From a virus (taxonomy: Duplodnaviria > Caudoviricetes): a stretch of 37,551 nucleotides of DNA. Both the position numbers and the translations under genes were made by a program. The stretch lies in IMG/VR virus record IMGVR_UViG_3300037188_000016, positions 1-37,551 of that record; one strand, 5' to 3'. Under the pieces are notes generated by a model. The model did not search any database and was not told the origin of the DNA. It was given only the letters and a program-made list of their open reading frames with translations. Within the stretch, counting starts at the first letter, position 1. Every line of letters begins with the position of its first letter. Positions 2,414-36,219 of the stretch are shown piece after piece.

Positions 2414-4723
2414 ATGGCCAAGAAAGCGGAAAAAATCGCGCATGAAGCGCGTTTAGCTTGTGAAAAATGGCGTGAAGGCTTCAAGTGGAACATTGACCAA
2501 TACCACGAGATGCATACCTTTGTACTCGGCCAGCAATGGACGGACGAGGAAGAGGACGACATGATTAAGACGTTTCGTAAAGTGCCGATGGTTGCTAATA
2601 AACTCGGTGCAATGGCGAACTCTTTGCTTGGTGAGCAGCAACAAAACACCCCGCAGCTTCAAGTCGTTCCAATGACAAATTGTGACGAGAACACAGCCCA
2701 TTTGCGAGAGTTGATTGTCAAAGACATTATGTTCTCAACTGATGCGACAATCACTTATCAGGTGGCAGCCGGTCAAGCTGCAATTGGTGGCTATAGTGCG
2801 TTCTATGTGGGTACTGATTACACACACCAACGCTCGTTTGACCTTGATATTTGTTACGGTCACTTCAAAGATGCCACGCGAACATACTTCGATATAAGTG
2901 CCGAGACTCCAAACAAAACGGATGGTATGCACTGCGGTTATATAACACGCATGAGTCGCGACAAGTTCCGCGAGATTTACGGTAAAGATTTAGAAGAAAA
3001 AATATCAAAGACCATGAGTCCAACGGCAAGCGTTGAAGAAATAGCCCTTGCAGTGCAACCCTCGGAAGGTGAAGACCCGTTTACCTGGGCGGATAATGAA
3101 GCAATTACAATCCTTGACCATTTTAAGCGTAAATTTGAGAACGATACGCTTTATAAACTATCGAATGGTAAAACTTATAATCAAGAAGAGCTTGACGAAC
3201 TGATAGAAAAATCACGCGAGATGAATGCCAAGCTTGACGAGAACCGCGACGATTTAGATTTAACCGCTGCAATTGGCCAGAATATGCCAGGCATGAACTT
3301 GATGCCTCAAGATACCAATATGGATTTGATGTCTACAGATACCAGCGAAGCCCAAGGCACAGCAAGTATGGGTGATTCTAACGCCGAAGAAGTCGAAGAA
3401 GTAGCTCTTGAAGATGATTATGACATGATGACGCTTTGGGATGATGGCGAACCGGTGCGTATTGAAGACAAGCGCAAATTCAAATCATACAAGATATGGC
3501 ATTACAAAATAGCCGGTGATTACATCCTTGAAGATGGTGAGTTTCCAGCCGAGCAGCTCCCCGTTATATTCATGGATCAAAACAGTTTCTATGATAAAAA
3601 CGGCAAGCAAATTTGTCGCAGCTTCTTTGGTGATTGTAGAGATACACAGCGTTATATCAACTACATTCGCACTCAATCAGCCTTTATCCTCAAGATATCT
3701 CGCTATGATCAGTTCATAGGCTCCAAGAAGAACGTACAGGGATTAGACACTCAACGAAACTGGCGTGACCCAAATAGCGTACAGGGGTTACTTGCATACG
3801 ATGAAAGCCCATCTGGCGCTAAACCTGAGCAATTAAGACCGCCTGAGCTGTCAGCCTCTTTGCTTCAACAATACGAGATTGCAATACAAGATTTGTACCT
3901 TGCTACAGGCTTATATCCTACCCAGCTCGGACAACAAGGCAATGAAGTGTCAGGTACGGCAATTGATGCCCGTACACGACAAGGCTCGTACTCAACCTAT
4001 TGTTTCTTTAATTCCGTGAATCGTGCCATTACAACCGGTGGCTCTGTGGTCAATGAAATGATTCCCCGTGTCTATGATTCAGAGCGCGTTATTACCTTGA
4101 TGATGCCTGATGAGGGCATGAAGAACATTACAGTTAACAAACAAATGGATGATTACGGTGAACTTATTGAAAACGACATACGCAAGGGAACTTATGAAGT
4201 CAGACTCAAAGCAGGGCCAAGTTTTGAAGGACAAAAAGAGCAAGCCTTACAGTCATTACGTGAAGTTCTACAAGCCGATCCTGAAACATTTAAACTTGTG
4301 GCAGACCTCTACGCTGACAACTTGCCCCTCTCAAACAACCTCGAAATCAAGAACCGATTAAAAACGATTGTGCCGCCTGAAATCATAGAAGCGGGTAAAA
4401 CGGGCAAGATGCCACATGAAAGCGGTCAACCTACGCCTGAACAAATGATGATGCAGCAACAAATGCAAATGCAAGAGCAACAAATGCAAATGCAGCAAAA
4501 AGAAATCCAACTAAAAGAGGAGGAGATACGACTAAAACAACAAAAAATCCTAATGGATGCACAAGTAGCACTTCAAAAGCTTGAAACGGAAAAACTGGTG
4601 GTGGCAGGAGATATACAAGAGCAGGAGCTTAGGTATCTCGCGGAAACACAACGCACACAAAGTGATGAGTCAATCGCTCACGCTGACAATTTGGTGAGGA
4701 TTTTGACGCATAAGATTCAATAA
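2414..4723 (+). CDS. portal protein, P22-like
   Basis: 769 aa directly after terL; GQQW, RDTQRYINY and EVSGTAIDAR motifs; C-terminal Q-rich coiled-coil barrel. Confidence 0.9.
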   Translation: MAKKAEKIAHEARLACEKWREGFKWNIDQYHEMHTFVLGQQWTDEEEDDMIKTFRKVPMVANKLGAMANSLLGEQQQNTPQLQVVPMTNCDENTAHLRELIVKDIMFSTDATITYQVAAGQAAIGGYSAFYVGTDYTHQRSFDLDICYGHFKDATRTYFDISAETPNKTDGMHCGYITRMSRDKFREIYGKDLEEKISKTMSPTASVEEIALAVQPSEGEDPFTWADNEAITILDHFKRKFENDTLYKLSNGKTYNQEELDELIEKSREMNAKLDENRDDLDLTAAIGQNMPGMNLMPQDTNMDLMSTDTSEAQGTASMGDSNAEEVEEVALEDDYDMMTLWDDGEPVRIEDKRKFKSYKIWHYKIAGDYILEDGEFPAEQLPVIFMDQNSFYDKNGKQICRSFFGDCRDTQRYINYIRTQSAFILKISRYDQFIGSKKNVQGLDTQRNWRDPNSVQGLLAYDESPSGAKPEQLRPPELSASLLQQYEIAIQDLYLATGLYPTQLGQQGNEVSGTAIDARTRQGSYSTYCFFNSVNRAITTGGSVVNEMIPRVYDSERVITLMMPDEGMKNITVNKQMDDYGELIENDIRKGTYEVRLKAGPSFEGQKEQALQSLREVLQADPETFKLVADLYADNLPLSNNLEIKNRLKTIVPPEIIEAGKTGKMPHESGQPTPEQMMMQQQMQMQEQQMQMQQKEIQLKEEEIRLKQQKILMDAQVALQKLETEKLVVAGDIQEQELRYLAETQRTQSDESIAHADNLVRILTHKIQ

Positions 4724-5849: not shown

Positions 5850-7097
5850 ATGGCTAACGTATTTAGAGAAACCCAGTACGTTCTGGATGACGTATTTGTA
5901 CGCTTCTGGAACAGTCTTGCATTTGCAAGAACCGCTAATAGAAACCTCGAAGGCGATTTTAAGAACTTAAGATTCGCTACAGGTCAAACAATCGACTACC
6001 GCTTAGAAGAAAGATATCTCGCTGGTGAAGGCGCTACAGCTACAGCCGAAGCCCGTGTACAGGTAATCCGACCTCTAACAATTTCTAAACAATTCCGTAC
6101 CATGATTGAATACACAGGTTTCAACCTGACCTTCGACCGTGCGCGAGATGAACCTTATTTAGAAATGGCGAACGCTCCAAGAGCTAAACGTCTTGGTAAC
6201 TTGGTTGAGAACTTCATTGCTGACACGTTCCAGACTCAAGTATATCAATCCGTTGGTACTCCTGGCGTTCCTGTAGACTTCAATACGATTCTAAGCGCTG
6301 ATGCTTTAATGACTCAGCTTGGTATACCAGAAGATGGCAAGCGTTATGCTGCTGTTCCTCCTCGCGTATCTGCTAACTTGAACAATGACTTGTACAACGT
6401 CTTCAACAACACTGTAAATACTGGTGCGTTGATTGACGGTTTCATCGGTCACTTGTCAGGTTTTGACTTCTTCAAGACTAACTTCTTGCGTCGTCAAATT
6501 GCTGGTGCTGGTCAGTTAGGCGGTACTCCTCCTGCTGGTATGTTGCTTGCAGGTACTGTAACCAATGGCCCTATCGTTGGTGGCAATACAATCGCTGTGA
6601 CTGGATTGGGTCAAGCTCCTGGAACTGTAGTATTTAATCTAGGTGACGTGATTCAAGTAGCTCCTGCTGCTGGTGTGTACATGGTTAACCCTTTGACCTA
6701 TGAACCCATCTATGAAGCTCCTGCGCAATTCGTTGTTACTGCTCAGGTCATTTCGTCTGATGGTAACACTGCAACTATCCCTGTTAACCCAACAATCGTT
6801 ATTGATGGTGCTCGTCAAAACATCAGTGCTGCTATTCCTAACGGCGCTCAAATGTTGCTGTATGCATCTCATAACGTGTCATTGGCTTATCACACTCAAG
6901 CTGTGGTCTTTGCTGCTCCTCCTATCAAAGAACTTCGCGGTGGTGTTGAGGCTGTGACTCGATACTCTGACCTGTACAAACTTTCTATGACCTACTCCTT
7001 GGGTGCGGACATCAGAAACTACGAACAGTTAGACCGTATCGACGTTATCTGCGGGGTCGCAATTAACCCTGAGTTTGCTGTGATGATTATGTCCTAA
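5850..7097 (+). CDS. major capsid protein, P22 coat family
   Basis: Start ATG at 5850 (MANVF) with AGGGAG RBS; 415 aa; G..I.Y, insertion domain and C-terminal DRIDVICG...PEFA motifs; highly expressed-type codon bias. Confidence 0.92.
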   Translation: MANVFRETQYVLDDVFVRFWNSLAFARTANRNLEGDFKNLRFATGQTIDYRLEERYLAGEGATATAEARVQVIRPLTISKQFRTMIEYTGFNLTFDRARDEPYLEMANAPRAKRLGNLVENFIADTFQTQVYQSVGTPGVPVDFNTILSADALMTQLGIPEDGKRYAAVPPRVSANLNNDLYNVFNNTVNTGALIDGFIGHLSGFDFFKTNFLRRQIAGAGQLGGTPPAGMLLAGTVTNGPIVGGNTIAVTGLGQAPGTVVFNLGDVIQVAPAAGVYMVNPLTYEPIYEAPAQFVVTAQVISSDGNTATIPVNPTIVIDGARQNISAAIPNGAQMLLYASHNVSLAYHTQAVVFAAPPIKELRGGVEAVTRYSDLYKLSMTYSLGADIRNYEQLDRIDVICGVAINPEFAVMIMS

Positions 7098-7104
7098 AGC
7101 TGCC

Positions 7105-7130
7105 TGGTTCCTTCATTCGTGAGGGAACCA
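7105..7130 (+). terminator. stable stem-loop after the capsid gene (partial terminator or mRNA stabiliser)
   Basis: TGGTTCCTTCA-TTCG-TGAGGGAACCA; the U tail is weak. Confidence 0.5.
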
Positions 7131-7151
7131 CAATTTGAACAGGGGTTAAAG

Positions 7152-7364
7152 ATGCACGTAGAAGAAACCGAAGAATTAGTACCCTATCTTGGAAAACAAG
7201 TTTCTCGCCGAGGATTTAGAGCCTTCATTTATGCAACTGATGGCCGAGAGAAGATTGCAGAATCATACGATGAATTTGACCTCTTCACCCATAGTGACGA
7301 ATGGTTTGCCACAAAAGAGGAAGCTGCTTTACCTAAGAAGCCCCGTAAAAAAACGGAGGGATAA
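7152..7364 (+). CDS. small hypothetical virion-module protein
   Basis: Likely ATG at 7152 with AGGGG RBS; TAATG coupling to the next gene; basic C-terminus. Confidence 0.65.
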   Translation: MHVEETEELVPYLGKQVSRRGFRAFIYATDGREKIAESYDEFDLFTHSDEWFATKEEAALPKKPRKKTEG

Positions 7365-8305
7365 TGGCTTACACATTCCGAGACTTTGCTTTTCAAATGT
7401 ACCGTTTGATAAGTGCGTCTAATCCTACAACGCCGCTCCAGGGTGATGATGAGAAACTCTGCTTGCAGGTTTTAAATCAACTCATGCAATCCTATGCGGG
7501 CAATGGTCAAATGCTAACGATAGCAAAGACTTTGACTTGTCCAATAAATATCGGGATTCATACCATCCGCTTTGTGGATAACAATTACCCGACAGACACG
7601 ATTATGCGCGAGATTGTGACTCTTACTTTGAATTCACCGTCTTTCACTGTTGCTGATGGAACATTGTATAATCCTGGCGAGCAGGTAACAGGCAACGGAA
7701 TACCCACATTGAGTTTTATTGATTCAATAGATGGCAATATAGTGACATTGAATAATGTCTCAACCATCTCAGGTACATCTACACTTCAATTTATTCAGCC
7801 AATTGTTATACCTGGAATTGTATTTATCAAGCAAGGAAGGCTCGCAAATCTGGATAATGCCTGGTTAGTTTTATCCGGTGTGACATACCCATTAATTGAT
7901 AAATCACGTGATGACTTTTTGGCGGCTTGGAAATATGAACCACTAAAAGGATTGCCACGCTTTGCAATCACATTCCCCGATACCGAATTTGTTGACATTA
8001 GGCTTTATCCTGCACCTAGTCAGTTCTTTGAATTCTTTTGCAGAGGAAAGTTTCAATTATCGTCATATACAAAAGACTCTGATATGTCCAATTTACCTCA
8101 ATATTTCATACGATTTTTACTCTTGGCGGGTGCGCGTGACGTATGTATGTACAAAGGACGTGCGGAAGCCTGGACACCAAAATTAGAACAAATGTACATG
8201 GAAGCATACGACATTATGGTATCAACCAGTGAAGTGAATCTCTCCATTACTGGTGACGAGCAATCCTTACTTAACGGCGCATGGCGTGTGAGGGCGGGAA
8301 TATAA
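7364..8305 (+). CDS. head-to-tail adaptor / DNA stabilisation protein (P22 gp4-like position) with an inserted beta-rich segment
   Basis: Synteny; helical N-terminus (CLQVLNQLMQSY), LYPAPS motif and C-terminal LP..F..FL helix. Confidence 0.65.
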   Translation: MAYTFRDFAFQMYRLISASNPTTPLQGDDEKLCLQVLNQLMQSYAGNGQMLTIAKTLTCPINIGIHTIRFVDNNYPTDTIMREIVTLTLNSPSFTVADGTLYNPGEQVTGNGIPTLSFIDSIDGNIVTLNNVSTISGTSTLQFIQPIVIPGIVFIKQGRLANLDNAWLVLSGVTYPLIDKSRDDFLAAWKYEPLKGLPRFAITFPDTEFVDIRLYPAPSQFFEFFCRGKFQLSSYTKDSDMSNLPQYFIRFLLLAGARDVCMYKGRAEAWTPKLEQMYMEAYDIMVSTSEVNLSITGDEQSLLNGAWRVRAGI

Positions 8306-10391: not shown

Positions 10392-11048
10392 ATGAGCTGG
10401 CTATCAAGTTTCTTACACCCAGAAAAAAGCTATGACACGGCGCAGCAACAACTTGATCAATATTACAATCAAGGTCAGGGCTATTTAAACCCCTATAATC
10501 AAAATGGGCAAGATGCCTATGGCGGTTACAAAGGAGCTATGGACAAGCTTTTAAATCCTGCCGCTTTACAGGATGAATGGTCTAAAAATTACAAAGAAAG
10601 TGATTTGGCCAAGCAAAATGAAGCAATGGCTTCTCAACAAGGATTAAATGCTGCGCAACAAATGGGTTTAAGCGGCTCATCTCCTGCCATACAAGCTATT
10701 CAATCAGGAACCAGCGGAATTGTAGCCCAAGATCGTCAAAAATATCTTGATGATTTGATGCAAAAATACATGACTGGTATCGGAATCGGCCAAGATATTT
10801 ATGGAAAGGGAGCAAGTGCTGCTAACTCCATGAGCCAAAATGCCATGACACAAGGGCAAAATTCTGCACAAACTCAATTTAATAAGAAGAACGCTCAAGG
10901 TGATTTGTTTGGTAAACTCTTAGGAGGCGGGATTGGTTTAGTCGGCAGTGCTTTAGGTGGCCCAATTGGTGGGGCATTAGGAGCTGGACTGTCTCAGTCT
11001 ATGGGTTGGTCGCCAAAGGGTAGCTACAATCCTATGGGGAGTAGATAA
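10392..11048 (+). CDS. DNA ejection (pilot) protein, gp7-like
   Basis: Q/G/N-rich, LNPYNQNG motif, Gly-rich hydrophobic C-terminus; synteny. Confidence 0.7.
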   Translation: MSWLSSFLHPEKSYDTAQQQLDQYYNQGQGYLNPYNQNGQDAYGGYKGAMDKLLNPAALQDEWSKNYKESDLAKQNEAMASQQGLNAAQQMGLSGSSPAIQAIQSGTSGIVAQDRQKYLDDLMQKYMTGIGIGQDIYGKGASAANSMSQNAMTQGQNSAQTQFNKKNAQGDLFGKLLGGGIGLVGSALGGPIGGALGAGLSQSMGWSPKGSYNPMGSR

Positions 11049-22213: not shown

Positions 22214-22605
22214 GCCTAAAGCCGGAACAAATCGACCATATCAATTTAGTGAACTGGTTTCATTATAATTTTCCAGAATTGGCTGATGACTTACATCACT
22301 TTGCTAATGAACGAAAATGCAGCGAATATGAAGGTAAAAAATTAAAAAAAATGGGTGTTAAAAAAGGAGTTTCTGATTTTTTCCTAGCCGTACCTGTTCA
22401 GAATGAATATGGGGTTTGGTGGGCTGGATTGTGGGTCGAGTTAAAAGTTGGAAAGGGAAAACTTACACCGGAACAATCGGCATTTATCCATCGTAAATTA
22501 CAACGTGGTTATGAAGCCGTTGCGGTCTGGGGTGAGGATGCTGCAAAAGCAGTAATTTTGACTTATTTAAACAGGGGCGTTAAAAATGAGCGAAGCAAGT
22601 TATGA
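22210..22605 (+). CDS. VRR-NUC domain nuclease
   Basis: HFANE...KKMGVKKGVSD...ELKVGKGKLTPEQ (PD-(D/E)xK). Confidence 0.88.
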   Translation: MSLKPEQIDHINLVNWFHYNFPELADDLHHFANERKCSEYEGKKLKKMGVKKGVSDFFLAVPVQNEYGVWWAGLWVELKVGKGKLTPEQSAFIHRKLQRGYEAVAVWGEDAAKAVILTYLNRGVKNERSKL

Positions 22606-23128
22606 GTTTGATCCATGTAGTATAGATGGAAGTGATCAAGAAGAAGAACCAGTAACATTGGATAACTGGAAGCCGAGCGAACATAAACCAAAGATAGTTG
22701 CTTCTAAATGGCGGCAAGATTCTATTGGAACGAATTTTAATCAGCAACCAGGATTGGATGAGTTAAACAAAATCCATATGTTTCTCAAAAAGAAAGCCTC
22801 TGATGCTGATATCATGAAAGCTTTTGGTATTAGCGCTGAAACTTTAATCGCTATCAGAAAAGACAAGTATGACCCTGTTGATGGAATATCCCTCGATAAC
22901 CAAAGCAAAATATACAAAGAGTTTAAGCGTCTTGAAGACCGCATTGAGAGCTTACTCAGAGGCATCAATCATATTGCAGACTGTATGTTCATTGATAAAA
23001 AGTCTAAGGCTGATTATAAAAAGTCATTCAAAAAGCCTAAAAAGGCAAAAGTAGAAAAAAAGCCAAAAGATGAGGAATATGAGGAAATGTGTGAGCAAAA
23101 TGACGATTTTTCCCCAGAAGAAGAATAG
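22586..23128 (+). CDS. hypothetical protein, possibly with an HTH
   Basis: 180 aa; SDADIMKAFGISAETLIAIRK is HTH-like; tail is Lys-rich and then acidic. Confidence 0.6.
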   Translation: MSEASYEFDPCSIDGSDQEEEPVTLDNWKPSEHKPKIVASKWRQDSIGTNFNQQPGLDELNKIHMFLKKKASDADIMKAFGISAETLIAIRKDKYDPVDGISLDNQSKIYKEFKRLEDRIESLLRGINHIADCMFIDKKSKADYKKSFKKPKKAKVEKKPKDEEYEEMCEQNDDFSPEEE

Positions 23129-23157
23129 AATCTGATCCATCCATGAAGGAAACAGTT

Positions 23158-23189
23158 GAGGGGTTCGTTATGCGACCCCTTCTTTATTT
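23158..23189 (+). terminator. Rho-independent terminator
   Basis: GAGGGGTTCG-TTATG-CGACCCCTT followed by CTTTATTT. Confidence 0.6.
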
Positions 23190-23260
23190 CAAAACATCTT
23201 GACATCAAGCCCTCAATACATCAAGATTCCTGCGTTTCAAGACATCAAGGAATCAAGATA
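23189..23260. repeat. 8-bp-period repeat array (consensus TCAAGACA), parH/operator-like centromere
   Basis: tcaaaaca tcttgaca tcaagccc tcaataca tcaagatt cctgcgtt tcaagaca tcaaggaa tcaagata, ending at the parA ATG. Confidence 0.8.
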
Positions 23261-23892
23261 TGATTATTTCAATATTAAATCAAAAGGGCGGTACGGGTAA
23301 AACCACGCTGGCTGTTAATATGGCGCGTGAATATACCAAGCGCAACTGTAAAACATTACTTGTCGATTCAGACGGTCAAGGATCTGCTTTGCGCTGGCAT
23401 GAAGAATCAGGCGGTGAATTAATTGATTTAACGTGCTTGCCTGTTACAACCCTCGATAAAGACGTACTGAAATTTACCGATAGATATCAGAGAATTATTA
23501 TTGATGGCGTACCTAGCGTTTCCCCGTTAACCATTTGCGCAATTAAAGCGGCTGATGTTGTTTTAATTCCCGTTCAACCTTCTCCTTACGATATATGGGC
23601 TACAGAAGATTTAGTTAAACTCGTTAAACAACGTCAGGAATTGAGTGACGGTAAATTAAAAGCGGCTTTCGTAGTCAGTAGAAGAATTAAAGGTACAAAA
23701 ATTGGCAATGAGATTGTAAAACAATTAACCTCTTTTGAATTGCCGGTATTTTTACATGGTACTTATCAACGTATCGAATACGCTAAAGCTGTTCAAGAGG
23801 GAAGAACTGTTTGTGATTTAAAAAGCGAAGCAGCTCTTGAAGTGACAGCTATCGTTAATGAGTTAGAGGAATTTATAAATGGCACTGATTGA
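23260..23892 (+). CDS. parA: ParA/ParF partition ATPase (type Ib)
   Basis: Deviant Walker [23 protein letters not shown] and [11 protein letters not shown] motifs; 210 aa with no N-terminal HTH. Confidence 0.93.
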
Positions 23893-24085
23893 TTCGGGTA
23901 AGAAAATCGATAAAGAGAAGCAGCATAAAGAATTGACTGGTTTAATGAAGAATATGGATATTAAACAATATCCCCTGAGAATTCCTGCCAATCTCTATAA
24001 AAAGGTGCGTATTAAGCTCATGCAGGAAGACAAAAACCTTCGCGAGCTAATCCTCGATATGCTTAATCAATACATCAAGGAATAA
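23879..24085 (+). CDS. ParG-like ribbon-helix-helix centromere-binding protein
   Basis: 68 aa overlapping the parA end; [34 protein letters not shown] fits an RHH pattern. Confidence 0.75.
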
Positions 24086-24087
24086 AT

Positions 24088-24330
24088 ATGAGAAGTAGAG
24101 AAGAACATGTTAAGTTTTGCAAAGAAGAAGCCTATAAGTGTTATGAGTTTCATTTATCTGGTAAACAATATTCTGAGCCTGAAAATGCAATTAGACACGC
24201 TTGCACTACAATGTTGGTTGATATGAGTAAGCACCAAGAAACAGAAAAAGTAGCGGAAGCACTGTGTATGATGGTTATTTTTATTAAAACTGAGAGTGAA
24301 ATGCGTAAATTTATTGATGGTTTTAATTAG
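24088..24330 (+). CDS. hypothetical phage protein
   Basis: 80 aa with AAGGA RBS. Confidence 0.65.
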   Translation: MRSREEHVKFCKEEAYKCYEFHLSGKQYSEPENAIRHACTTMLVDMSKHQETEKVAEALCMMVIFIKTESEMRKFIDGFN

Positions 24331-24333
24331 ATA

Positions 24334-24373
24334 TATAGCAATATAGCAATCAAGACATCTTGACATAAAGACA
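24334..24373. repeat. second 8-bp-period repeat array
   Basis: tatagcaa tatagcaa tcaagaca tcttgaca taaagaca; shares units with the array upstream of parA. Confidence 0.7.
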
Positions 24374-24419
24374 TATTAGGTCTGGTTCTGTGTATAATCA
24401 GACTTAACAAGGAGGAAGT

Positions 24420-25247
24420 ATGAAAAAATGGATTTTAGCAGGATTTATGCTTTTGGCATTTGGATTGGCATATGGATTTTATGATACCGAATTACGACAT
24501 GATTTGCATTATAAAATGTCTTTGGCTTCTCCGTTGCCAATTGTGGATTTGGAACGAATAAAAAAAGTTCACATTATAAACCTTTCAGCTTCAAATAACA
24601 TGGATTGGTTTGATAGAAAATTCCTTGAAGAACCACATATCTATACATCCGATGATTTTTATCAGCGAATCATGGAGCATTACCACGTTATTCATGATGA
24701 ATTAGTTTTGAATTGGAAAATAACTGACGAGCAGACGCTTAAATCACTTTATTTTATGAATGTCGTGTCTAATATGTGGGGTTATGGTAATAAAGGAACC
24801 GACACTAAAACCGGTTGTGCTTGTACCAATGAAATAAATGAACATGCTTTTCCTTGTGAAACTCAATTCATTGAAAACCCAGAAGCCTATATTTACACCA
24901 AGATTGGATGTTGTGCTGATTCAGCTCGCGTTTTTAAATTTCTTTTAACGAAAGCTGGAATAAAAAATAGATACATGCAAAACCCTGGTCATATATTCAA
25001 TGATGTTTGGCTAGGCGGTCATTGGCAATCATTGGATGCAACGACGAATATGTGGTGGCGTGATAGTTGGGAAAATATTCAAAATGCAGAAACTCATTAT
25101 CATTTTAGCGTTTCTATTTTTCCTATGTACGGCGAAGTTTTAAACCATCCTTTCTATAGGCCATTTATTGGTGTGTTCAGGCATTATATGTTGCTTGAGG
25201 CGGTTTATAAGATGGCGAAGGATATTAAGCATCCAGACGTGATTTAA
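24420..25247 (+). CDS. secreted or membrane-anchored transglutaminase-like cysteine protein
   Basis: Signal-like N-terminus (MKKWILAGFMLLAFGLAYG); triad motifs GCCADSA, GHIFNDV and WQSLDAT; own TATAAT (24394-24399) and AAGGAGG RBS. Confidence 0.8.
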   Translation: MKKWILAGFMLLAFGLAYGFYDTELRHDLHYKMSLASPLPIVDLERIKKVHIINLSASNNMDWFDRKFLEEPHIYTSDDFYQRIMEHYHVIHDELVLNWKITDEQTLKSLYFMNVVSNMWGYGNKGTDTKTGCACTNEINEHAFPCETQFIENPEAYIYTKIGCCADSARVFKFLLTKAGIKNRYMQNPGHIFNDVWLGGHWQSLDATTNMWWRDSWENIQNAETHYHFSVSIFPMYGEVLNHPFYRPFIGVFRHYMLLEAVYKMAKDIKHPDVI

Positions 25248-25248
25248 A

Positions 25249-25305
25249 TGGAGGCTCCGAGAGGGTATCCATTGGATATCATATGCGCAAGACGCTGCCG
25301 GAGCC
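25249..25305 (-). ncRNA. 57-nt tRNA-like mini RNA
   Basis: GGCTCCG...CGGAGCC-T-CCA: a perfect 7-bp acceptor stem, discriminator and CCA, with two small internal hairpins. Confidence 0.55.
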
Positions 25306-25313
25306 ATAGCGAT

Positions 25314-25399
25314 TGGTGGAGAGGGATGGATTCGAACCATCGCGCCTTTTGGGAGCAGATTTACAGTCTGCCGACATCAACCACTCGTACCACCTCTCC
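25314..25399 (-). tRNA. tRNA-Tyr (GTA)
   Basis: Acceptor GGAGAGG/CCTCTCC-A-CCA; anticodon arm GCAGA-CTGTAAA-TCTGC; T arm GATGG-TTCGAAT-CCATC; long variable arm; imperfect D stem. Confidence 0.93.
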
Positions 25400-25403
25400 G
25401 AAT

Positions 25404-25507
25404 TGGCGAATGGGGGGATTTACACCCCTACAGCCTTTTACCGGCACAATCTCATAGCCTCACCATACCTGAGCGAGTTTACGCTTTCATGGGTTTGCCG
25501 TCTTCGC
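25404..25507 (-). ncRNA. ~104-nt tRNA-like RNA
   Basis: 3' end GGGG-TGTAAAT-CCCC (T-arm-like) then CCATTCG-CCA; 5' GCGAA pairs with TTCGC; internal stems CGGCA/TGCCG and AGCG/CGCT. Confidence 0.5.
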
Positions 25508-25521
25508 ATTGCTGCTAAGAA

Positions 25522-25582
25522 TGGTGGGGTAAGTAACCAATTCACGAGAGTGTTTATATCGCCCTTTGGCATAAGAACCCCA
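25522..25582 (-). ncRNA. ~60-nt CCA-ended structured RNA
   Basis: TGGGGT...ACCCCA-CCA closing stem; internal GCC-AAAG-GGC hairpin. Confidence 0.4.
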
Positions 25583-25590
25583 TAACTCAG

Positions 25591-25773
25591 TGGGTACTCT
25601 CACCCTGTCACGATTTATCTTTCCTGCCGGACTAGAATCGTTTAGCCCTGATTAACGGGGAAGCTCCGCTCTGTACATTACTGGTTGACACTCTGTACAG
25701 AATTCCTAAACGCCAATCAAGGGCGTTGCAACCGGAAAAATAACGCTGGGAACGCCTTAACGAACCCGAGTAC
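25591..25773 (-). ncRNA. ~183-nt CCA-ended structured RNA
   Basis: GTACTC...GAGTAC-CCA closing stem; helices TTATTTTTCC/GGAAAGATAA, AACGCC/GGCGTT and TCTGTACA/TGTACAGA. Confidence 0.5.
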
Positions 25774-25797
25774 TGTCTCACCGTCATGGGTGATCAG

Positions 25798-26118
25798 CTA
25801 ATTAGCCATAAACTCACTTCCATACTTCTTAATTGCTTGCTTGGACATGCATTCCTTATACAAAAATAACTTGCTGGAAGGATGCGTGGTTGGGTCTTTG
25901 ACGTTATATTTCCACAAACTAGGTGGCATAGTCAACCCGCATTTATCCATATAGGTACTACATTCTTTTAAAATGCATGTAATATGCGCAATGTATCCAT
26001 GTAATGAATCTTTATCCAGATGAATTACACCTAATGCATCTTTGTAAGATTGAATATGAGTGCCTAAAATACCAGCTTGACTCCTGTATTTATTCCAAAA
26101 ACTTATATGAAAGTTCAT
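25798..26118 (-). CDS. hypothetical protein
   Basis: 106 aa; ATGA overlap with the helicase stop. Confidence 0.6.
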   Translation of the reverse strand: MNFHISFWNKYRSQAGILGTHIQSYKDALGVIHLDKDSLHGYIAHITCILKECSTYMDKCGLTMPPSLWKYNVKDPTTHPSSKLFLYKECMSKQAIKKYGSEFMAN

Positions 26119-27839
26119 AACGATCCCTGTGATGGTTGAAAAATTTTCCTTTTTATCCTATACCCATTATCATCTTCATGAAGCATTATATGTGTAGGAG
26201 TGTTAACACTTTGAAGCATTTCTTGCATCTTCTCTCGTTTGTCGAGATGGATATACCAGTCGCTTGGTTTCTCGCAGTGTTTTTTGATGAACTGCCCATA
26301 GAAGACATGACGAGCCTTGTCGCTTATGGGCGTGTAGTTCTCATAAAAGGCTGCTATGCGTCCTTTGTCATCCCGACAGCGATACATACAATTTATTCTA
26401 AATCCTGTTTTAGAGTCCGATATTGCATATTTTGCATCAAGGACTTCAAGTTCTTTCAAGTCCGAGTTTGCTGATGGCAAAGTTAATTTATCATTTGGGT
26501 CTATCAATTCGTGTTGGCAAGCCCTACAATGGCGACTTGCGAGGTCATTTTTAACCCCGCATTCTTCGTTTGGACACTCCTTAAACTCAAAAAAATATTC
26601 GCAACGTTTATCATTGATTACTCCAACGCAACGACGAGCTGTTTCTGTATTTAACTCCATGCAAGCAGGGCATTTTATGACTCTTGGTTTATCATCATCT
26701 AAGGCCGTTCTAACCGCTTTAAGCAAGACTGGATTATCCCAATGACTATGCCGCTCAATATTACCCGCAAAATCTAAAACTAAGGCTCCTGTTTTATTGG
26801 TATTGGGTGACAAGCGTAAGACTCTTCCCATTGTTTGGACGAGGAGAACGAGGCTTTCTGTAGGGCGTAAATAAGCCAAGGTATCGAAAGCAGGAACATC
26901 GACACCCACACTAATGATGGCAATATTAACCAGGTATTTGATTTTTCCTTCACGAGCTGCATTTAAAATCCTTGTTCTTTCATCCTGTGGTGTCTCGCCT
27001 AATATTAAAGCACATTCGTCTGGCGGCAAATGACTCATTATCTCTTCGGCATGTTTTTTCGTTGTCGCAAAGATAAAGACCCCAAATCTAGCTTGGCTTT
27101 CCATGATATGAATGATTTGTTTGCAGATAAGCTCTGTTAAGCGAGCATTTTCACTGATTACCAGGTCAAGTTCTTTAGAATCAAATTTTCCATTGCTCTT
27201 AATTTTAACTTTTGAAAAGTCTATAACAAATTCTGGGTCTATTTTAAAATCAGGGTCAATTAGAAATTTCTGATTGATTAATTGCTCAGTAGTGATGTTT
27301 CCGACTTGTCGTTTGAAGAGACAATTATTTCCAACGATTTCGGTTCCTTTGAATCGGAAGTTTGTTCCGGTTGCTCCGAGTAGACGCATTTGAGGGTATT
27401 CTTGTTTGAAGTGGCGAAGTATCCGCATAAAGACGCTGCGCTCATCAAGATAATTAATCGAATGAGCCTCATCAACAATGATGATATTAAATCTGATTTG
27501 GGCGATTCGTTCATTTTTATTAATTCCGTTTAAAATTGATTGTGGTGTACCGAAAACGACCGGTGCACTTTCGTCTTTCTCTCCCAGAGCAGCACAATAA
27601 ATCGAAGCATTACCGCCTTGTTCTTTAAATGTAGCACAATTATTTCTAACAAGTTCAGCATTATTTACGAGACATAAAGCTCGCTTTTCTAATTTCTCCA
27701 TGCGCAGCAGAATATCGGCCAGCATTAAGCTTTTTCCAGCTCCAACACTTGCCATCAATAAGACTGGATTATCATTTTCTTTAAGGGCGTTCCAACACTC
27801 CTGAACTGCTTGTTTCTGGTAAATCCGTAATTCCTTCAT
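26115..27839 (-). CDS. SF2 DEAH helicase with C-terminal Zn fingers (YejH/RadD-like)
   Basis: LRIYQ Q-motif, ASVGAGKS, DEAH, GATGT, QTMGRVLR and LDFAGNIERH motifs; multiple CxxC pairs. Confidence 0.93.
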   Translation of the reverse strand: MKELRIYQKQAVQECWNALKENDNPVLLMASVGAGKSLMLADILLRMEKLEKRALCLVNNAELVRNNCATFKEQGGNASIYCAALGEKDESAPVVFGTPQSILNGINKNERIAQIRFNIIIVDEAHSINYLDERSVFMRILRHFKQEYPQMRLLGATGTNFRFKGTEIVGNNCLFKRQVGNITTEQLINQKFLIDPDFKIDPEFVIDFSKVKIKSNGKFDSKELDLVISENARLTELICKQIIHIMESQARFGVFIFATTKKHAEEIMSHLPPDECALILGETPQDERTRILNAAREGKIKYLVNIAIISVGVDVPAFDTLAYLRPTESLVLLVQTMGRVLRLSPNTNKTGALVLDFAGNIERHSHWDNPVLLKAVRTALDDDKPRVIKCPACMELNTETARRCVGVINDKRCEYFFEFKECPNEECGVKNDLASRHCRACQHELIDPNDKLTLPSANSDLKELEVLDAKYAISDSKTGFRINCMYRCRDDKGRIAAFYENYTPISDKARHVFYGQFIKKHCEKPSDWYIHLDKREKMQEMLQSVNTPTHIMLHEDDNGYRIKRKIFQPSQGSL

Positions 27840-28854: not shown

Positions 28855-29024
28855 TTTCTGCACTCCACTTCCTCATGCAATAAATTAACAATTGCTTCCT
28901 GGTTAGCAACCAACTGCTTAAGACTATATAACTTAAGTGATTCATCCATTAACTTCGAATCCAATGCGGCTAAGGACAAGCTTTTAAGCTCGCCCTTGTG
29001 TTTTTCACATATACAACTTGTCAT
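28851..29024 (-). CDS. small hypothetical protein (57 aa, MTSCICEKHKGEL...)
   Basis: Not in the ORF track; TAATG overlap with recT and ATGA overlap with the next gene. Confidence 0.6.
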   Translation of the reverse strand: MTSCICEKHKGELKSLSLAALDSKLMDESLKLYSLKQLVANQEAIVNLLHEEVECRK

Positions 29025-30061
29025 TATTTATCTGCCTCTTTGTTTAATCTTGATATAAAATCATCAGCCTGGGCGGTTGTAAGTTCTCCCAATGCTCCTA
29101 CCTCATAATGTTTAAGAGCATCACCGAAACGCTCAGGTGAAAAATCCTTAACAGAAACCAGGGCGTGAATCTCTTTTAATTGCTCAGGTGTTGCCACTTC
29201 TCCGGTTTCATTATTAGCCGTTTTGCCTTTTGCTGCATTTAATTTATCCATTAACGCATCATGCTGACGAGAAGGTTTTTCAGTTGGCGTTTCACCTAAT
29301 TCACCTTCGATAAAGTCTATATCAAACTCTTCACTAGCAGACGCTTTAATATTCTGTATTCCAGCTTCTTGCAGCTCATCCAATGACACGGCTTTTTGCA
29401 TCTCAACACTGCAAGGCAACCATTTAAACAGCTTTCTAAGCACTGTCTTTTTAGCCATCTCTTCATAGTGAGTTACCCATGGGCCATTATTTTTAGACTT
29501 GGATTGATTCTTGATAATGTCCACGTCCTTTTTGCTCATTACATCGAATTGATGACCGCCATCTTTAAGTAGTGCAACCGCATAAACTGCCACTAATTCG
29601 CCACGGTCATTCATAGCTGGTTTATGGATTAAATTTTCTTTCAATCCGAACTCATAGCTAAATTCATCATTTGAATAAACAGCACGAGCCACGAGAGATA
29701 CAATTTGCCCTGACCGTCTGGCTAAGTCCAGGAATCCACGATAACCAGGCATAAACGTACATTCTACTTTACCCGTTTGGTTATTGTTGAAAGGGATTAA
29801 GTAACATGACCCTAAAATACCAGGCTCAAGACCTAATTGACTTGCTTGCATAATCGCAGCAATAAAACTCAAAGGATCGCATTCTTGAAGCTTAGGGGTT
29901 TTCCTAAGCTCAGTCATTGCAATGCGTGCCATTCTTTCAGGCGTTAAATGTTTGGGTAAGCAGCGAGCAATCTCACCTTTCATCTGTTCCAGCAATCCCA
30001 TGACTGACTTTTGGTTAGCCATCATCATGCTTTTTCGTTCAGTAGTGCTCATATTACTCAT
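29024..30061 (-). CDS. recT: RecT single-strand annealing protein
   Basis: LPKHLTPERMARIA, SQLGLEPG..G.CYLIPF, GYRGFLDLARRSG and PWVTHYEEMAKKTVLRKLFKWLP motifs. Confidence 0.95.
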   Translation of the reverse strand: MSNMSTTERKSMMMANQKSVMGLLEQMKGEIARCLPKHLTPERMARIAMTELRKTPKLQECDPLSFIAAIMQASQLGLEPGILGSCYLIPFNNNQTGKVECTFMPGYRGFLDLARRSGQIVSLVARAVYSNDEFSYEFGLKENLIHKPAMNDRGELVAVYAVALLKDGGHQFDVMSKKDVDIIKNQSKSKNNGPWVTHYEEMAKKTVLRKLFKWLPCSVEMQKAVSLDELQEAGIQNIKASASEEFDIDFIEGELGETPTEKPSRQHDALMDKLNAAKGKTANNETGEVATPEQLKEIHALVSVKDFSPERFGDALKHYEVGALGELTTAQADDFISRLNKEADK

Positions 30062-30891
30062 GCCGCTTTCTCCTGTTCATCAATAATTGCATACTTGGGT
30101 ACTGCGAGTTCCTGTACAAGATACCCTTCCCACTTGTTTTCATCCATACACTTTTTTAACTTTCTTTTATAGGCGGTGAATTGGTCAATACCAAACTGCA
30201 AAGCCTCATCTTTCATAATGTAAATCGCTGGTACGTGAGGAGCTTCTTTCTCACACGCCAAAATCACGAACATATCAAAAGGTTTATCGAGTGCCTTGCA
30301 TGCTTCATGTGCCATTCCAGCTTGAAGATAATATCCATACTCCAAAGCGCTTCTCATAAAGCTGTAGGCGCTCGCGTTATTCGTGGTCTTTAAATCCACA
30401 ACCATTTTTGAAGACCAAATGTCAGGCCGTGTTTTAAACTGCAAACCAGTCTCTTTATCAGTCCAGAAAATAGATTGCTCATAAACCGCCTCATCTAAAA
30501 GGGTCGTGACAATTTCATGCTTGCTTACCAAGTCAACCATTTTGCTGACCTTGGCAAATTGGTCATCACTTAACAATATTTTACCGTGACTTTCTTCAAC
30601 AAATATTTCCCACTCTTCCTTCCCTTGTTTGGTTCGTCTATCCACTTTTGGAGCCACTGCAAATTCCATTTGAAACTTTGCCGGCTCTAATAACATTGTG
30701 TGGAACGCCGAGCCTATATTCATTGCTGGTGTTGCTTCTTGCTTCTCAGCAAGACCTGACATTGTTTCATACCAAAAGTGATACGGGCTTTTATCCAACA
30801 ACATCAACTTACTGCGAGAAATACCTTTAGAAGAATGATATTGCTCGTTTGTTATGTCATATACCCCATCTTTATATTCTGTGTTCATCAT
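30058..30891 (-). CDS. RecE/ExoVIII-like PD-(D/E)xK exonuclease (DUF3799-like)
   Basis: Likely ATG at 30891 with AAGGA RBS; YHSSKGISRS, GSAFHTMLLEP, KTRPD..VVDLKTT and YGYYLQA motifs; adjacent to recT. Confidence 0.88.
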   Translation of the reverse strand: MMNTEYKDGVYDITNEQYHSSKGISRSKLMLLDKSPYHFWYETMSGLAEKQEATPAMNIGSAFHTMLLEPAKFQMEFAVAPKVDRRTKQGKEEWEIFVEESHGKILLSDDQFAKVSKMVDLVSKHEIVTTLLDEAVYEQSIFWTDKETGLQFKTRPDIWSSKMVVDLKTTNNASAYSFMRSALEYGYYLQAGMAHEACKALDKPFDMFVILACEKEAPHVPAIYIMKDEALQFGIDQFTAYKRKLKKCMDENKWEGYLVQELAVPKYAIIDEQEKAA

Positions 30892-30916
30892 AGTTTCCTT
30901 TGTTAGTGAAGCGTCC

Positions 30917-30945
30917 ATTTTATGATGAGTGTCGTCATATGTCAA
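30917..30945 (-). promoter_or_regulatory. sigma70 promoter (PL-like) for the recE-recT-helicase-RNA operon
   Basis: On the minus strand: TTGACA (30945-30940), 17-nt spacer, TAAAAT (30922-30917). Confidence 0.75.
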
Positions 30946-31003
30946 TGCTCGACAGATGTTAATATTTTTTGTCTTAAAGTGCAGACAGATTATATGTCGA
31001 ATG

Positions 31004-31032
31004 TTAACATACGTCAAAAATATTGATACATT
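31004..31032 (+). promoter_or_regulatory. candidate PR-like promoter for the cro operon
   Basis: TTAACA, 17-nt spacer, TACATT; overlapped by an operator-like 15-mer. Confidence 0.45.
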
Positions 31033-34810: not shown

Positions 34811-35785
34811 ATGACTGCGCCAAAAAAAAACCTAAATCATCAGTTATTAGCTCAATTTTCGGGCAATGATTCATTTCTTACTATTCCCAAAATTTATTAT
34901 CGGCTTACTAAAAATCTTAATAAATCTTTATTGCTCAGCCAAGTAATTTTTTATTCAGATAAATCAACGTATTGTCAGGATGGATGGTTTTATAAAACGT
35001 ATCAAGAATGGCAAACCGAAGTATTTTTAAGTGTTAGGGGTATGAGAGATTTATTTAAAGAACTGGTCAATGAGTCCTTAATTGAAATGCGCGTTGCAAA
35101 GGTTCACGGAATAAGAACACCTCTTTTTAGACCCCGTTTAGATAACATAGCAAAAGCTATAGAAGCATTATTACTGTCCGAAATTGACGCACCCGAAGAA
35201 AAGCCAAATGAGCAAAAATTGCCCCAAACGGCAGAAAGTGCCGATAAGGTCAAAAATGTACCTAAACGGCAGAAAGTGCCGGATAGCCAAACGGCAGAAA
35301 GTGCCGTTTCTAATACATATATACAGATCAGTACTTCAGATAAAAAAACAACTACGTCAAAAAACCGTGGTAGTAGTAATTTTTCTAAAACAAAACAAAA
35401 AATGCTCGACCAAAAATGCGAAGATGATTCGAGGACAGACGAGGAATTTTTAAATCACTGCGAACACCACATCAAAAACAATAGCCTTGAGGGCAGCGAT
35501 TACAAACGAGCCATGATGCTCATTGCCTTATTGAAAAAGCTTTTTGAAATAGGTGAGCACTTTAAATCAAAAGGATATGTGAATATTCAAGAGCAAGAAT
35601 CAAAAGCCAAACAAGAAAAAGAACGCCAGCGGTTACAAGCCGAAGCCCAAGACAGGCAACACCAAGAACGCCTCAATAGCTACAATAAATCTTCGGAAAA
35701 AGACAGGCAATCAAAACCTAATCAAGAAAGACGTGGAGTACCTACAAGCCTTAAGGCAATTCTTGGTATGAGCCATGCCAACTAA
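34811..35785 (+). CDS. replication initiator, lambda O-like
   Basis: Likely ATG at 34811; N-terminal LLLSQVIFYS...DGWFYKTYQEWQTE winged-helix motif; internal iterons. Confidence 0.8.
   Translation: MTAPKKNLNHQLLAQFSGNDSFLTIPKIYYRLTKNLNKSLLLSQVIFYSDKSTYCQDGWFYKTYQEWQTEVFLSVRGMRDLFKELVNESLIEMRVAKVHGIRTPLFRPRLDNIAKAIEALLLSEIDAPEEKPNEQKLPQTAESADKVKNVPKRQKVPDSQTAESAVSNTYIQISTSDKKTTTSKNRGSSNFSKTKQKMLDQKCEDDSRTDEEFLNHCEHHIKNNSLEGSDYKRAMMLIALLKKLFEIGEHFKSKGYVNIQEQESKAKQEKERQRLQAEAQDRQHQERLNSYNKSSEKDRQSKPNQERRGVPTSLKAILGMSHAN
35226..35306. repeat. three 18-bp iterons AAACGGCAGAAAGTGCCG, putative origin
   Basis: Exact copies at 35226, 35264 and 35289, each with a CGGCA/TGCCG dyad; an A/T-rich tract follows. 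Confidence 0.85.
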
Positions 35786-36018: not shown

Positions 36019-36219
36019 ATGCAAACTGGAACTGTAAAGTGGTTTAATGAAGCAAAAGGGTTTGGATTCGTAGCAAGTGAAGGAAAAGATTTTTTTGTGT
36101 ACTTCAAAGAGATTCAGGGGACAGGATTTAAGACTTTGAAAGAAGGCCAAAAGGTGCAATTCGTAGCTGGAACGTCACCTAAAGGCGCATGTGCAAAAGA
36201 AGTAAGCGTTATTGCTTAA
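36019..36219 (+). CDS. csp: cold-shock domain protein (CspA family)
   Basis: [15 protein letters not shown] (RNP1), DFFVYF (RNP2-like), [13 protein letters not shown]. Confidence 0.95.

Follow-up and report, generated by a model that had tools for sequence, protein, structure and literature searches.

The closest known kind of RNA to the elements described here appears to be the stable RNAs of phages T4 and T5, which are similar in build and, judged by sequence, not homologous. T4 RnaC (species 1, 139 nt) and RnaD (species 2, 119 nt) are non-tRNA RNAs that lie directly beside tRNA genes, with gaps of 1–6 nt. A T arm lies close to the 3′ end of RnaC. RnaD ends in CCA if the next base is counted, and the annotated end of RnaC lacks CCA. 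Both are still described as RNAs of unknown function in the T4 literature (PMC3014915; PMC9697503). The T5 stable RNAs (RNAI, RNAIII, RNAIV, RNA1, RNA2, RNA2H and RNA3) lie inside tRNA arrays and are annotated as stable or tRNA-like, function unknown. T5 RNAI combines a 5-bp closing stem with one further base and CCA.

CI of phage P4 is an antisense RNA of the P1 C4 type. P1 C4 is itself a phage small RNA that RNase P matures from a closing stem without a T loop. Bacterial RNase P also matures SRP RNA, which likewise lacks a T loop, and its optimal context is A(−2)U(−1) with G(+1) and a 3′ RCCA (PMC10731613). Polycistrons of irregular tRNAs and allo-tRNAs have been recovered from soil and peat; some of these RNAs are charged but unused in translation, and they lie near toxin-antitoxin genes (Mukai et al., PMC5389517). 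The allo-tRNAs keep an 8/4 or 9/3 cloverleaf and are attributed to Acidobacteria. Finally, phage tRNAs can act against defence systems: a T5-like tRNA-Tyr rescues from retron-Eco7 and tRNA-Lys from PrrC. In this work, the mechanism needs a decoding tRNA, and altered anticodons or stem-loops abolished rescue (PMC11555353).

A predicted RNA cassette at the end of a leftward gene row

The window (the whole stretch of DNA analysed) is an entire virus record of 37,551 bases, rated complete. It encodes terminase, portal, scaffold, major head, head-closure and DNA-ejection proteins, as well as ParA with an Arc-like neighbour, RecE/RecT-like genes and a helicase. None of the GenBank phages is close to it (capsid identity ≤29%). 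Among the best 120 RecT relatives, all eight organism-named rows are Legionella pneumophila (77–82% identity), and the host is thus likely a Legionella relative. A cold-shock protein points to Legionellales more weakly than RecT does (window 29024–31017, 36019–36219). In GTDB genomes a helicase relative was not found and the module-D pattern had no match, so no host genome was found. ParA and the Arc-like gene (23260–24085) suggest a plasmid-like prophage state, and three 23-nt direct repeats at 35213–35306, within the replication-initiator gene, are likely iterons of the origin.

The cassette occupies 25249–25798 on the minus strand, ~550 nt at the end of a leftward gene row (Table 1). It is bounded by two stop codons, that of a 106-aa ORF (25798) and that of a convergent plus-strand gene (25247); RecE/RecT-like genes lie further upstream of the helicase in the same row. 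The 106-aa ORF has no match in PHROG, Pfam, PADLOC or the protein atlas. The convergent gene (24420–25247) is a lone gene of 275 aa and low GC; it matches the transglutaminase core weakly (E 3e-4, under the cut-off), and its slot is occupied by different genes in relatives. We found no toxin-antitoxin or defence gene beside the window cassette, and no cassette-specific promoter or terminator above shuffle level.

Table 1. Features of the cassette and its upstream neighbours in the window, in minus-strand order.
Feature	Description	Positions	Strand	Basis
Helicase gene	superfamily-2 helicase, leftward row	26115..27839	-	PHROG 16, Pfam ResIII/Helicase_C
106-aa ORF	directly upstream of cassette	25798..26118	-	30 relatives
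Element A	two hairpins directly after stop of last ORF, not CCA-ended	25745..25798	-	9 homologues
Module B	closing helix and four hairpins, no CCA	25611..25745	-	RNAalifold, 4 homologues
Small hairpin (hp)	after B; source of the CCA of the 183-nt unit	25592..25605	-	comparison of relatives
Module C	60 nt, 5-bp closing stem, ACCA	25522..25581	-	predicted fold
Module D	104 nt, irregular short closing stem	25404..25507	-	alignment of 4
tRNA-Tyr(GUA)	7-bp closing stem, G1-C72, A73, long variable arm, encoded CCA	25314..25399	-	ARAGORN, Rfam
Module E	57 nt, 8-bp closing stem, two inner hairpins, UCCA	25249..25305	-	5 sequences

The preliminary description of this tract divided it into five CCA-terminated RNAs, each with its own closing stem. 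The sequence does contain the five intervals, their spacers (8, 4, 14 and 8 nt) and a CCA at the end of each, and ARAGORN and Rfam returned tRNA-Tyr(GUA), with 46.8 bits against an RF00005 cut-off of 29, as the sole tRNA or Rfam match in the tract. A canonical end (5′ G, closing stem, one unpaired base and CCA) is found in three of the five units, namely C, tRNA-Tyr and E. The 104-nt unit (module D) is irregular, with a 5-bp stem that uses the first C of CCA, so that stem and CCA overlap.

The 183-nt unit does not hold up as one CCA-ended RNA. Its 6-bp closing stem lacks a discriminator base, is absent from its MFE and centroid folds and is unpaired in all three distinct relatives with both arms (L004, L008, L070), and its 5′ arm falls within separately conserved element A. 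Comparison with relatives resolves this unit as an operon-end element, a four-arm RNA (module B) and a hairpin that had been parsed as one. The non-tRNA units had also been described as having no cloverleaf; none matches a tRNA, but tRNA-like arms are present in two of them. The 104-nt unit contains a T-arm-like hairpin, and the four-arm RNA has an anticodon-like arm (5 bp, 7-nt loop; 25710–25726) and a T-loop-like arm with an invariant loop (25629–25648).

Searches with ARAGORN and RF00005 over 23500–27500, to an E-value of 5, gave no match except tRNA-Tyr and left modules A–E unmatched. Rfam 15 (including tmRNA, Y RNA, 6S, small ribozymes and C4) gave tRNA matches only in the window tract and in the cassettes of 12 loci; weak matches in the tract to Plastid-psbl-rps4, Esr41 and uup were far below cut-off. 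By inspection against consensus motifs, we considered and set aside a two-piece tmRNA, a hammerhead ribozyme for A, 6S RNA or a group I intron remnant for B and an HDV-like theta ribozyme for E.

We scored 1000 dinucleotide shuffles of the 554-nt tract for stems of at least 5 bp followed by one discriminator base and CCA. Five such CCA ends occur in the tract, whereas the shuffles average 0.95 (P = 0.003), and the tract's chain of three CCA-ended units standing back to back has P = 0.001. With the tRNA removed, P is 0.01 for ends and 0.005–0.16 for chains, depending on settings; these values are optimistic because the region was picked after the fact. The shuffle test speaks against a chance pattern. 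Four short ORFs of 51–90 codons overlap the tract, and the plus-strand gene stops 2 nt from the end of E, so that the pattern might instead belong to small ORFs or to the plus strand. However, module swaps and single-nucleotide indels interrupt the ORFs, the G-U/G-C exchanges are consistent with the minus strand and the downstream gene differs among relatives. We consider this family of explanations refuted, with a negligible chance of being right.

Related phages carry different, reordered modules

Relatives were sought with the helicase gene as the anchor, the upstream ORF and DNA patterns. Cassette elements occur at the distinct loci L003, L004 (= L005, L006), L007, L008, L013, L023, L037, L043, L050, L051 and L070; locus L029 also carries a cassette element, cut inside A. 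Of 15 helicase loci, six have a cassette (three identical), eight (60–73% identity) have none at that slot and one ends within the gene. The A and E models gave no strong match elsewhere in the records of those eight. In L009 and L010 (~6800–8200), plasmid-like and insertion-sequence-like DNA lies 3′ of the helicase in place of the cassette. The element-A pattern matched 18 loci, comprising six already known, two new true loci (L050 and L051) and ten chance matches. Chance matches at L055/L056 (~1511–1773) and L059 (~955–1217) correspond to a ~260-nt insertion in an apparent coding gene of an unrelated phage; we take this insertion to have group I intron-like core motifs.

In related phages of 35–38 kb, the same slot holds different, reordered modules. 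The order is A-B-hp-C-D-Tyr-E in the window, A-B-hp-C2-D-E in L004, A-B2-C2-D-F-E in L007, A-B2-C2-D2-Tyr-like-E in L037, A'-B-hp-C-I-E in L070, A-B-hp in L008, A-E in L013 and A-H-A-like-Tyr in L050; L043 has A alone and L003 has G alone. Module types seen only in relatives include B2 (a T-arm variant), C2, F, G, H, I and a second tRNA-Tyr type. Contig joints fall at module borders (25307/25401, 25308/25606 and 25308/25745). One contig joins A to E, another joins B to E via 119 other letters, and loose contig ends have C or the small hairpin followed by B2. Module E stands last wherever it is present.

The tRNA is an optional module. Contigs from three of four runs lack it cleanly, with 25307 joined to 25401, and RF00005 matches occur in only 3 of 18 records. 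The slot before E holds either tRNA-Tyr(GUA), in two versions of different sequence, or a tRNA body with a replaced anticodon arm. The latter is module I of L070, in which ~50 nt replace the anticodon arm (29 bits to RF00005). The cassettes of the complete genomes G003 and G004 are present without an RF00005 match, G003 having up to five cassette modules and no tRNA, and the L004 cassette also lacks a tRNA.

Among GenBank phages and plasmids, the non-tRNA part and the L007 cassette had no match at E up to 1, and only tRNA-Tyr matched. The literature searched held no published description of this cassette. The supplements of Fremin et al. (PMC10690425) gave no module match in the parts searched, and the remainder may list one.

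Other RNA genes were seen in these records. About 2 kb beyond the cassette, G016 (22506–22881; L089 1501–1876) has tRNA-Asn and tRNA-Gln, parted in L089 by ~225 nt of non-coding DNA of higher GC, in which further modules may lie. Between its terminase and portal genes, G008 (3159–3516; L090 1501–1860) has two degenerate tRNA-like genes (RF00005 41 and 23 bits, ARAGORN negative), one without most of the anticodon arm. L007 has an int-alpA RNA match at 10399–10465 (+), with 42.5 bits against an Rfam gathering score of 35.8.

Modules differ in fold, conservation and likeness to tRNA

Comparison of homologous tracts, proposed earlier as a check, revealed double-sided changes in A, B and E. In element A they affect 6 of 17 pairs (nine homologues; 0/500 shuffles). 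A paralogue of A lies on the plus strand at 23131–23182, right after the stop of ORF 22586–23128 and ahead of parA, and is kept in L007 (8749–8800, -) and L008 (8550–8601, -). Its second hairpin is terminator-like and is followed by a U tract. Element A is likely a cis operon-end element, a reading suggested by this second position after a stop codon and by the U tract. Short TCAAG-type repeats 3′ of the paralogue (23205–23259, and again 24067–24089) could be partition sites.

In module B, 11 of 43 pairs have double-sided changes (RNAalifold covariation term −3.44, four homologues). A Lys-like 7-nt hairpin loop, CAUUUAA, occurs in three of four B copies and both B2 copies, where it is closed by C-G in L037 and by G-C in L007. 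This loop carries A in place of tRNA U33. The window's own B, reading CUUGAUU, does not keep the anticodon-like loop. The small hairpin after B is kept in L070 with one G-U/G-C change, is replaced by a different hairpin without CCA in L004 and L008, and has other sequence before it in an X3-run contig.

Module C is identical to its L070 counterpart at 56 of 60 positions, stem and ACCA unchanged, and differs from an X3 contig at 8 positions over 90 nt. Module D combines a constant 3′ half bearing a variant T arm with an exchangeable 5′ half, which is different in L037 and appears in a third version in a loose end of X5. RNAalifold did not recover the closing stem of D from four homologues, and D ends in CCA in three of four copies. 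D is likely a tRNA-derived body; no alignment to tRNA is obtained for C or E.

In module E, 3 of 17 pairs show double-sided changes (five sequences, L013 left out; 3/500 shuffles), all in the second inner hairpin, of which the L013 copy has a third paired variant. The closing stem of E has only one-sided changes, with one mismatch in L070, and no double-sided change occurs in the closing stems of C, D or E. The inner sequences of D and E are nearly invariant, and those parts of E and B that are single-stranded do not vary at all.

We compared these modules with silent sites of the adjacent helicase gene. For L070, 10 of 29 fourfold silent sites agree over the final 200 codons of the helicase, while module identity is 93% for C, 84% for E and 70% for B. 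Against L013, fourfold silent sites match at 15 of 30 positions, and E is 88% and A 69% identical. Because the modules are 70–93% identical while neighbouring silent sites are near saturation, simple decay appears unlikely. Recent exchange of modules between phages could partly account for the high identity. Compensatory changes are independent of such exchange, however, and functionless decay is unlikely.

The slot does contain material that decaying tRNA genes without present function would leave behind, such as module I, the L037 tRNA-Tyr with its mismatched anticodon-stem pairs and the variant T loops of D and B2, and G008 holds its degenerate tRNA-like genes elsewhere. Against decay stand a degree of conservation far exceeding that of silent sites, the double-sided changes found in A, B and E, and the failure of C and E to align to tRNA. 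For A, B and E this explanation appears largely refuted, and for the modules as a whole we rate it highly improbable. Several modules clearly derive from tRNA, so a tRNA-gene origin and present-day selection both hold. The original proposal of a structured non-coding cassette with tRNA-style ends rather than simple decay is supported by compensatory changes, conservation above silent sites, clean module borders and RNase P leader context (see below). As judged from sequence comparison, the cassette is a real, conserved set of selected, structured non-coding RNA elements.

Unit ends suggest release by RNase P

We tabulated 23 units, which are not independent (E is counted seven times) and have ends set by eye; the table takes in no A, B or hairpin unit and omits D from L004 and L037 and the L051 unit. 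On this basis, 18 of 20 non-tRNA units (18 of all 23) begin at A(−2)U(−1)G(+1); as background, only 13 of the 144 G in the window tract follow AU. CCA is encoded at the end of only 16 of the 23 units, contrary to the uniform CCA rule first proposed, and is missing from E in three of seven copies (L004, L013 and L070). Against the RCCA consensus, the window copies read ACCA in C and UCCA in E. CCA is thus optional, and A, B and the small hairpin do not fit a CCA rule.

Because the units begin in the optimal leader context, release by RNase P is likely. RNase P probably cuts at A-U^G before each closing stem, with 3′ ends trimmed to the encoded CCA or CCA added.

Comparison with known systems and possible roles of the cassette RNAs

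Like T4 RnaC and RnaD, the window units are packed back to back. Module D has a T arm near its 3′ end as RnaC does, some E copies resemble RnaC in ending without CCA, and C and E share the geometry of T5 RNAI. The acceptor-like closing stem with a short 3′ tail typical of the T4 and T5 RNAs is present in C and E, irregular in D and absent from A and B. By position, modules are immediate neighbours of tRNA genes in the window, L037 and L050, and are not in G003, G004 or L004. In blastn searches, nine T4/T5 reference RNAs gave a best E of 0.13 against eight cassettes, the T4 similarity being limited to a T-loop 11-mer of the real tRNA, and the A and E models had no match in the T4 and T5 stretches. 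T4 encodes eight tRNAs and two such RNAs in 169 kb, and T5 places its stable RNAs in a large tRNA-rich region of a virulent phage. In contrast, a 37-kb phage here carries one tRNA or none, and non-tRNA modules form the majority and are swapped. What is new here is a shuffled, often tRNA-free RNA cassette in a small phage; the stable-RNA class itself has precedent in T4 and T5.

The cassette resembles allo-tRNA polycistrons in its tandem tRNA-like RNAs. Unlike the allo-tRNAs of PMC5389517, C, E and B have no 8/4 or 9/3 cloverleaf: the 12-bp acceptor branch is absent from the folds of B, C and E, and the D stem has at most 5 bp.

Our preferred reading, to which we give slightly less than an even chance as a whole, is that a modular cassette of folded RNAs is cut into small RNAs that act as tRNA stand-ins or decoys. 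The cassette would likely be transcribed together with its gene row, and host RNase P and 3′-trimming enzymes would likely cut the transcript into separate small RNAs, with CCA added to 3′ ends where it is not encoded. The released RNAs would act against host systems that bind or cut tRNA: tRNA-Tyr would replace a destroyed host tRNA, and the non-decoding modules would occupy tRNA-binding proteins.

Alternatively, the modules could be cis cutting marks or 3′-end stabilisers that free tRNA-Tyr or define and protect the operon mRNA end, and have no role after release. The A paralogue after another stop codon, with its terminator-like hairpin, fits this alternative, as does the fact that CCA is not always encoded. 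Yet complete genomes such as G003 offer no tRNA to free, a stem alone would suffice although inner sequences and multi-arm folds are conserved, and up to six tandem modules would be redundant for one mRNA end. We consider cutting marks unlikely. That the RNAs themselves are the payload, and not cutting marks only, is somewhat more likely than not, because the modules are mostly non-tRNA, vary among close relatives and occur in complete tRNA-free genomes.

Such a payload could also consist of regulators apart from tRNA defence, either antisense RNAs like P1 C4 and P4 CI or sponges for an RNA-binding protein of the phage or its host, with the tRNA-like end serving maturation only. The invariant single-stranded parts of E and B are consistent with this possibility, and the plasmid-like state suggested by ParA and the Arc-like gene would need regulation. 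Like C and E, C4 RNA has an extended stem and no T loop and is an RNase P substrate (PMC10731613). However, the cassette differs from P1 C4 in being a multi-module assembly at an operon end, in having no Rfam match to such families and in having no target above chance in the phage genome. The longest perfect complement there is 10–12 nt per module, a length no greater than chance for modules A–E. The small hairpin has an 11-mer complement (2/60 shuffles, one of six tests), which has no counterpart in three relatives. This test covered perfect complements, and targets of 7–8 nt are not separable from chance. Core regulators would also not be expected to be optional and freely swapped, and we regard a regulatory role as improbable.

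The reading as tRNA-mimic cargo draws on the slot itself, which repeatedly holds tRNA-Tyr or a tRNA body and in which Lys-like loops recur. Phage tRNA-Tyr and tRNA-Lys are the two tRNAs shown to rescue from retron-Eco7 and PrrC (PMC11555353). Here the slot holds no working tRNA other than tRNA-Tyr(GUA), Lys-like loops are found in B and B2, and most modules cannot decode, unlike the anti-defence tRNAs of that work. Because rescue needs an intact anticodon and stems, these results favour replacement by a working tRNA and weigh against decoys. It is possible, though on the doubtful side, that the payload works against tRNA-directed defences, with tRNA-Tyr as a replacement and the non-decoding modules as decoys.

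A bolder and rather unlikely extension is an RNA-only anti-defence island, a hypervariable slot that collects and shuffles RNase P-released tRNA mimics in small phages of Legionella relatives. Each mimic would then titrate a different tRNA-targeting nuclease or tRNA-binding sensor.

The cassette adds approximately ten RNA module types not in Rfam. In large phages, stable tRNA-like RNAs are hard to tell from tRNA punctuation; the cassette provides a small set of natural deletions with which to test the function of such RNAs. An RNA-only island, if true, would parallel protein anti-defence clusters at the RNA level, and stable RNAs of the T4/T5 class would gain their first assigned function.
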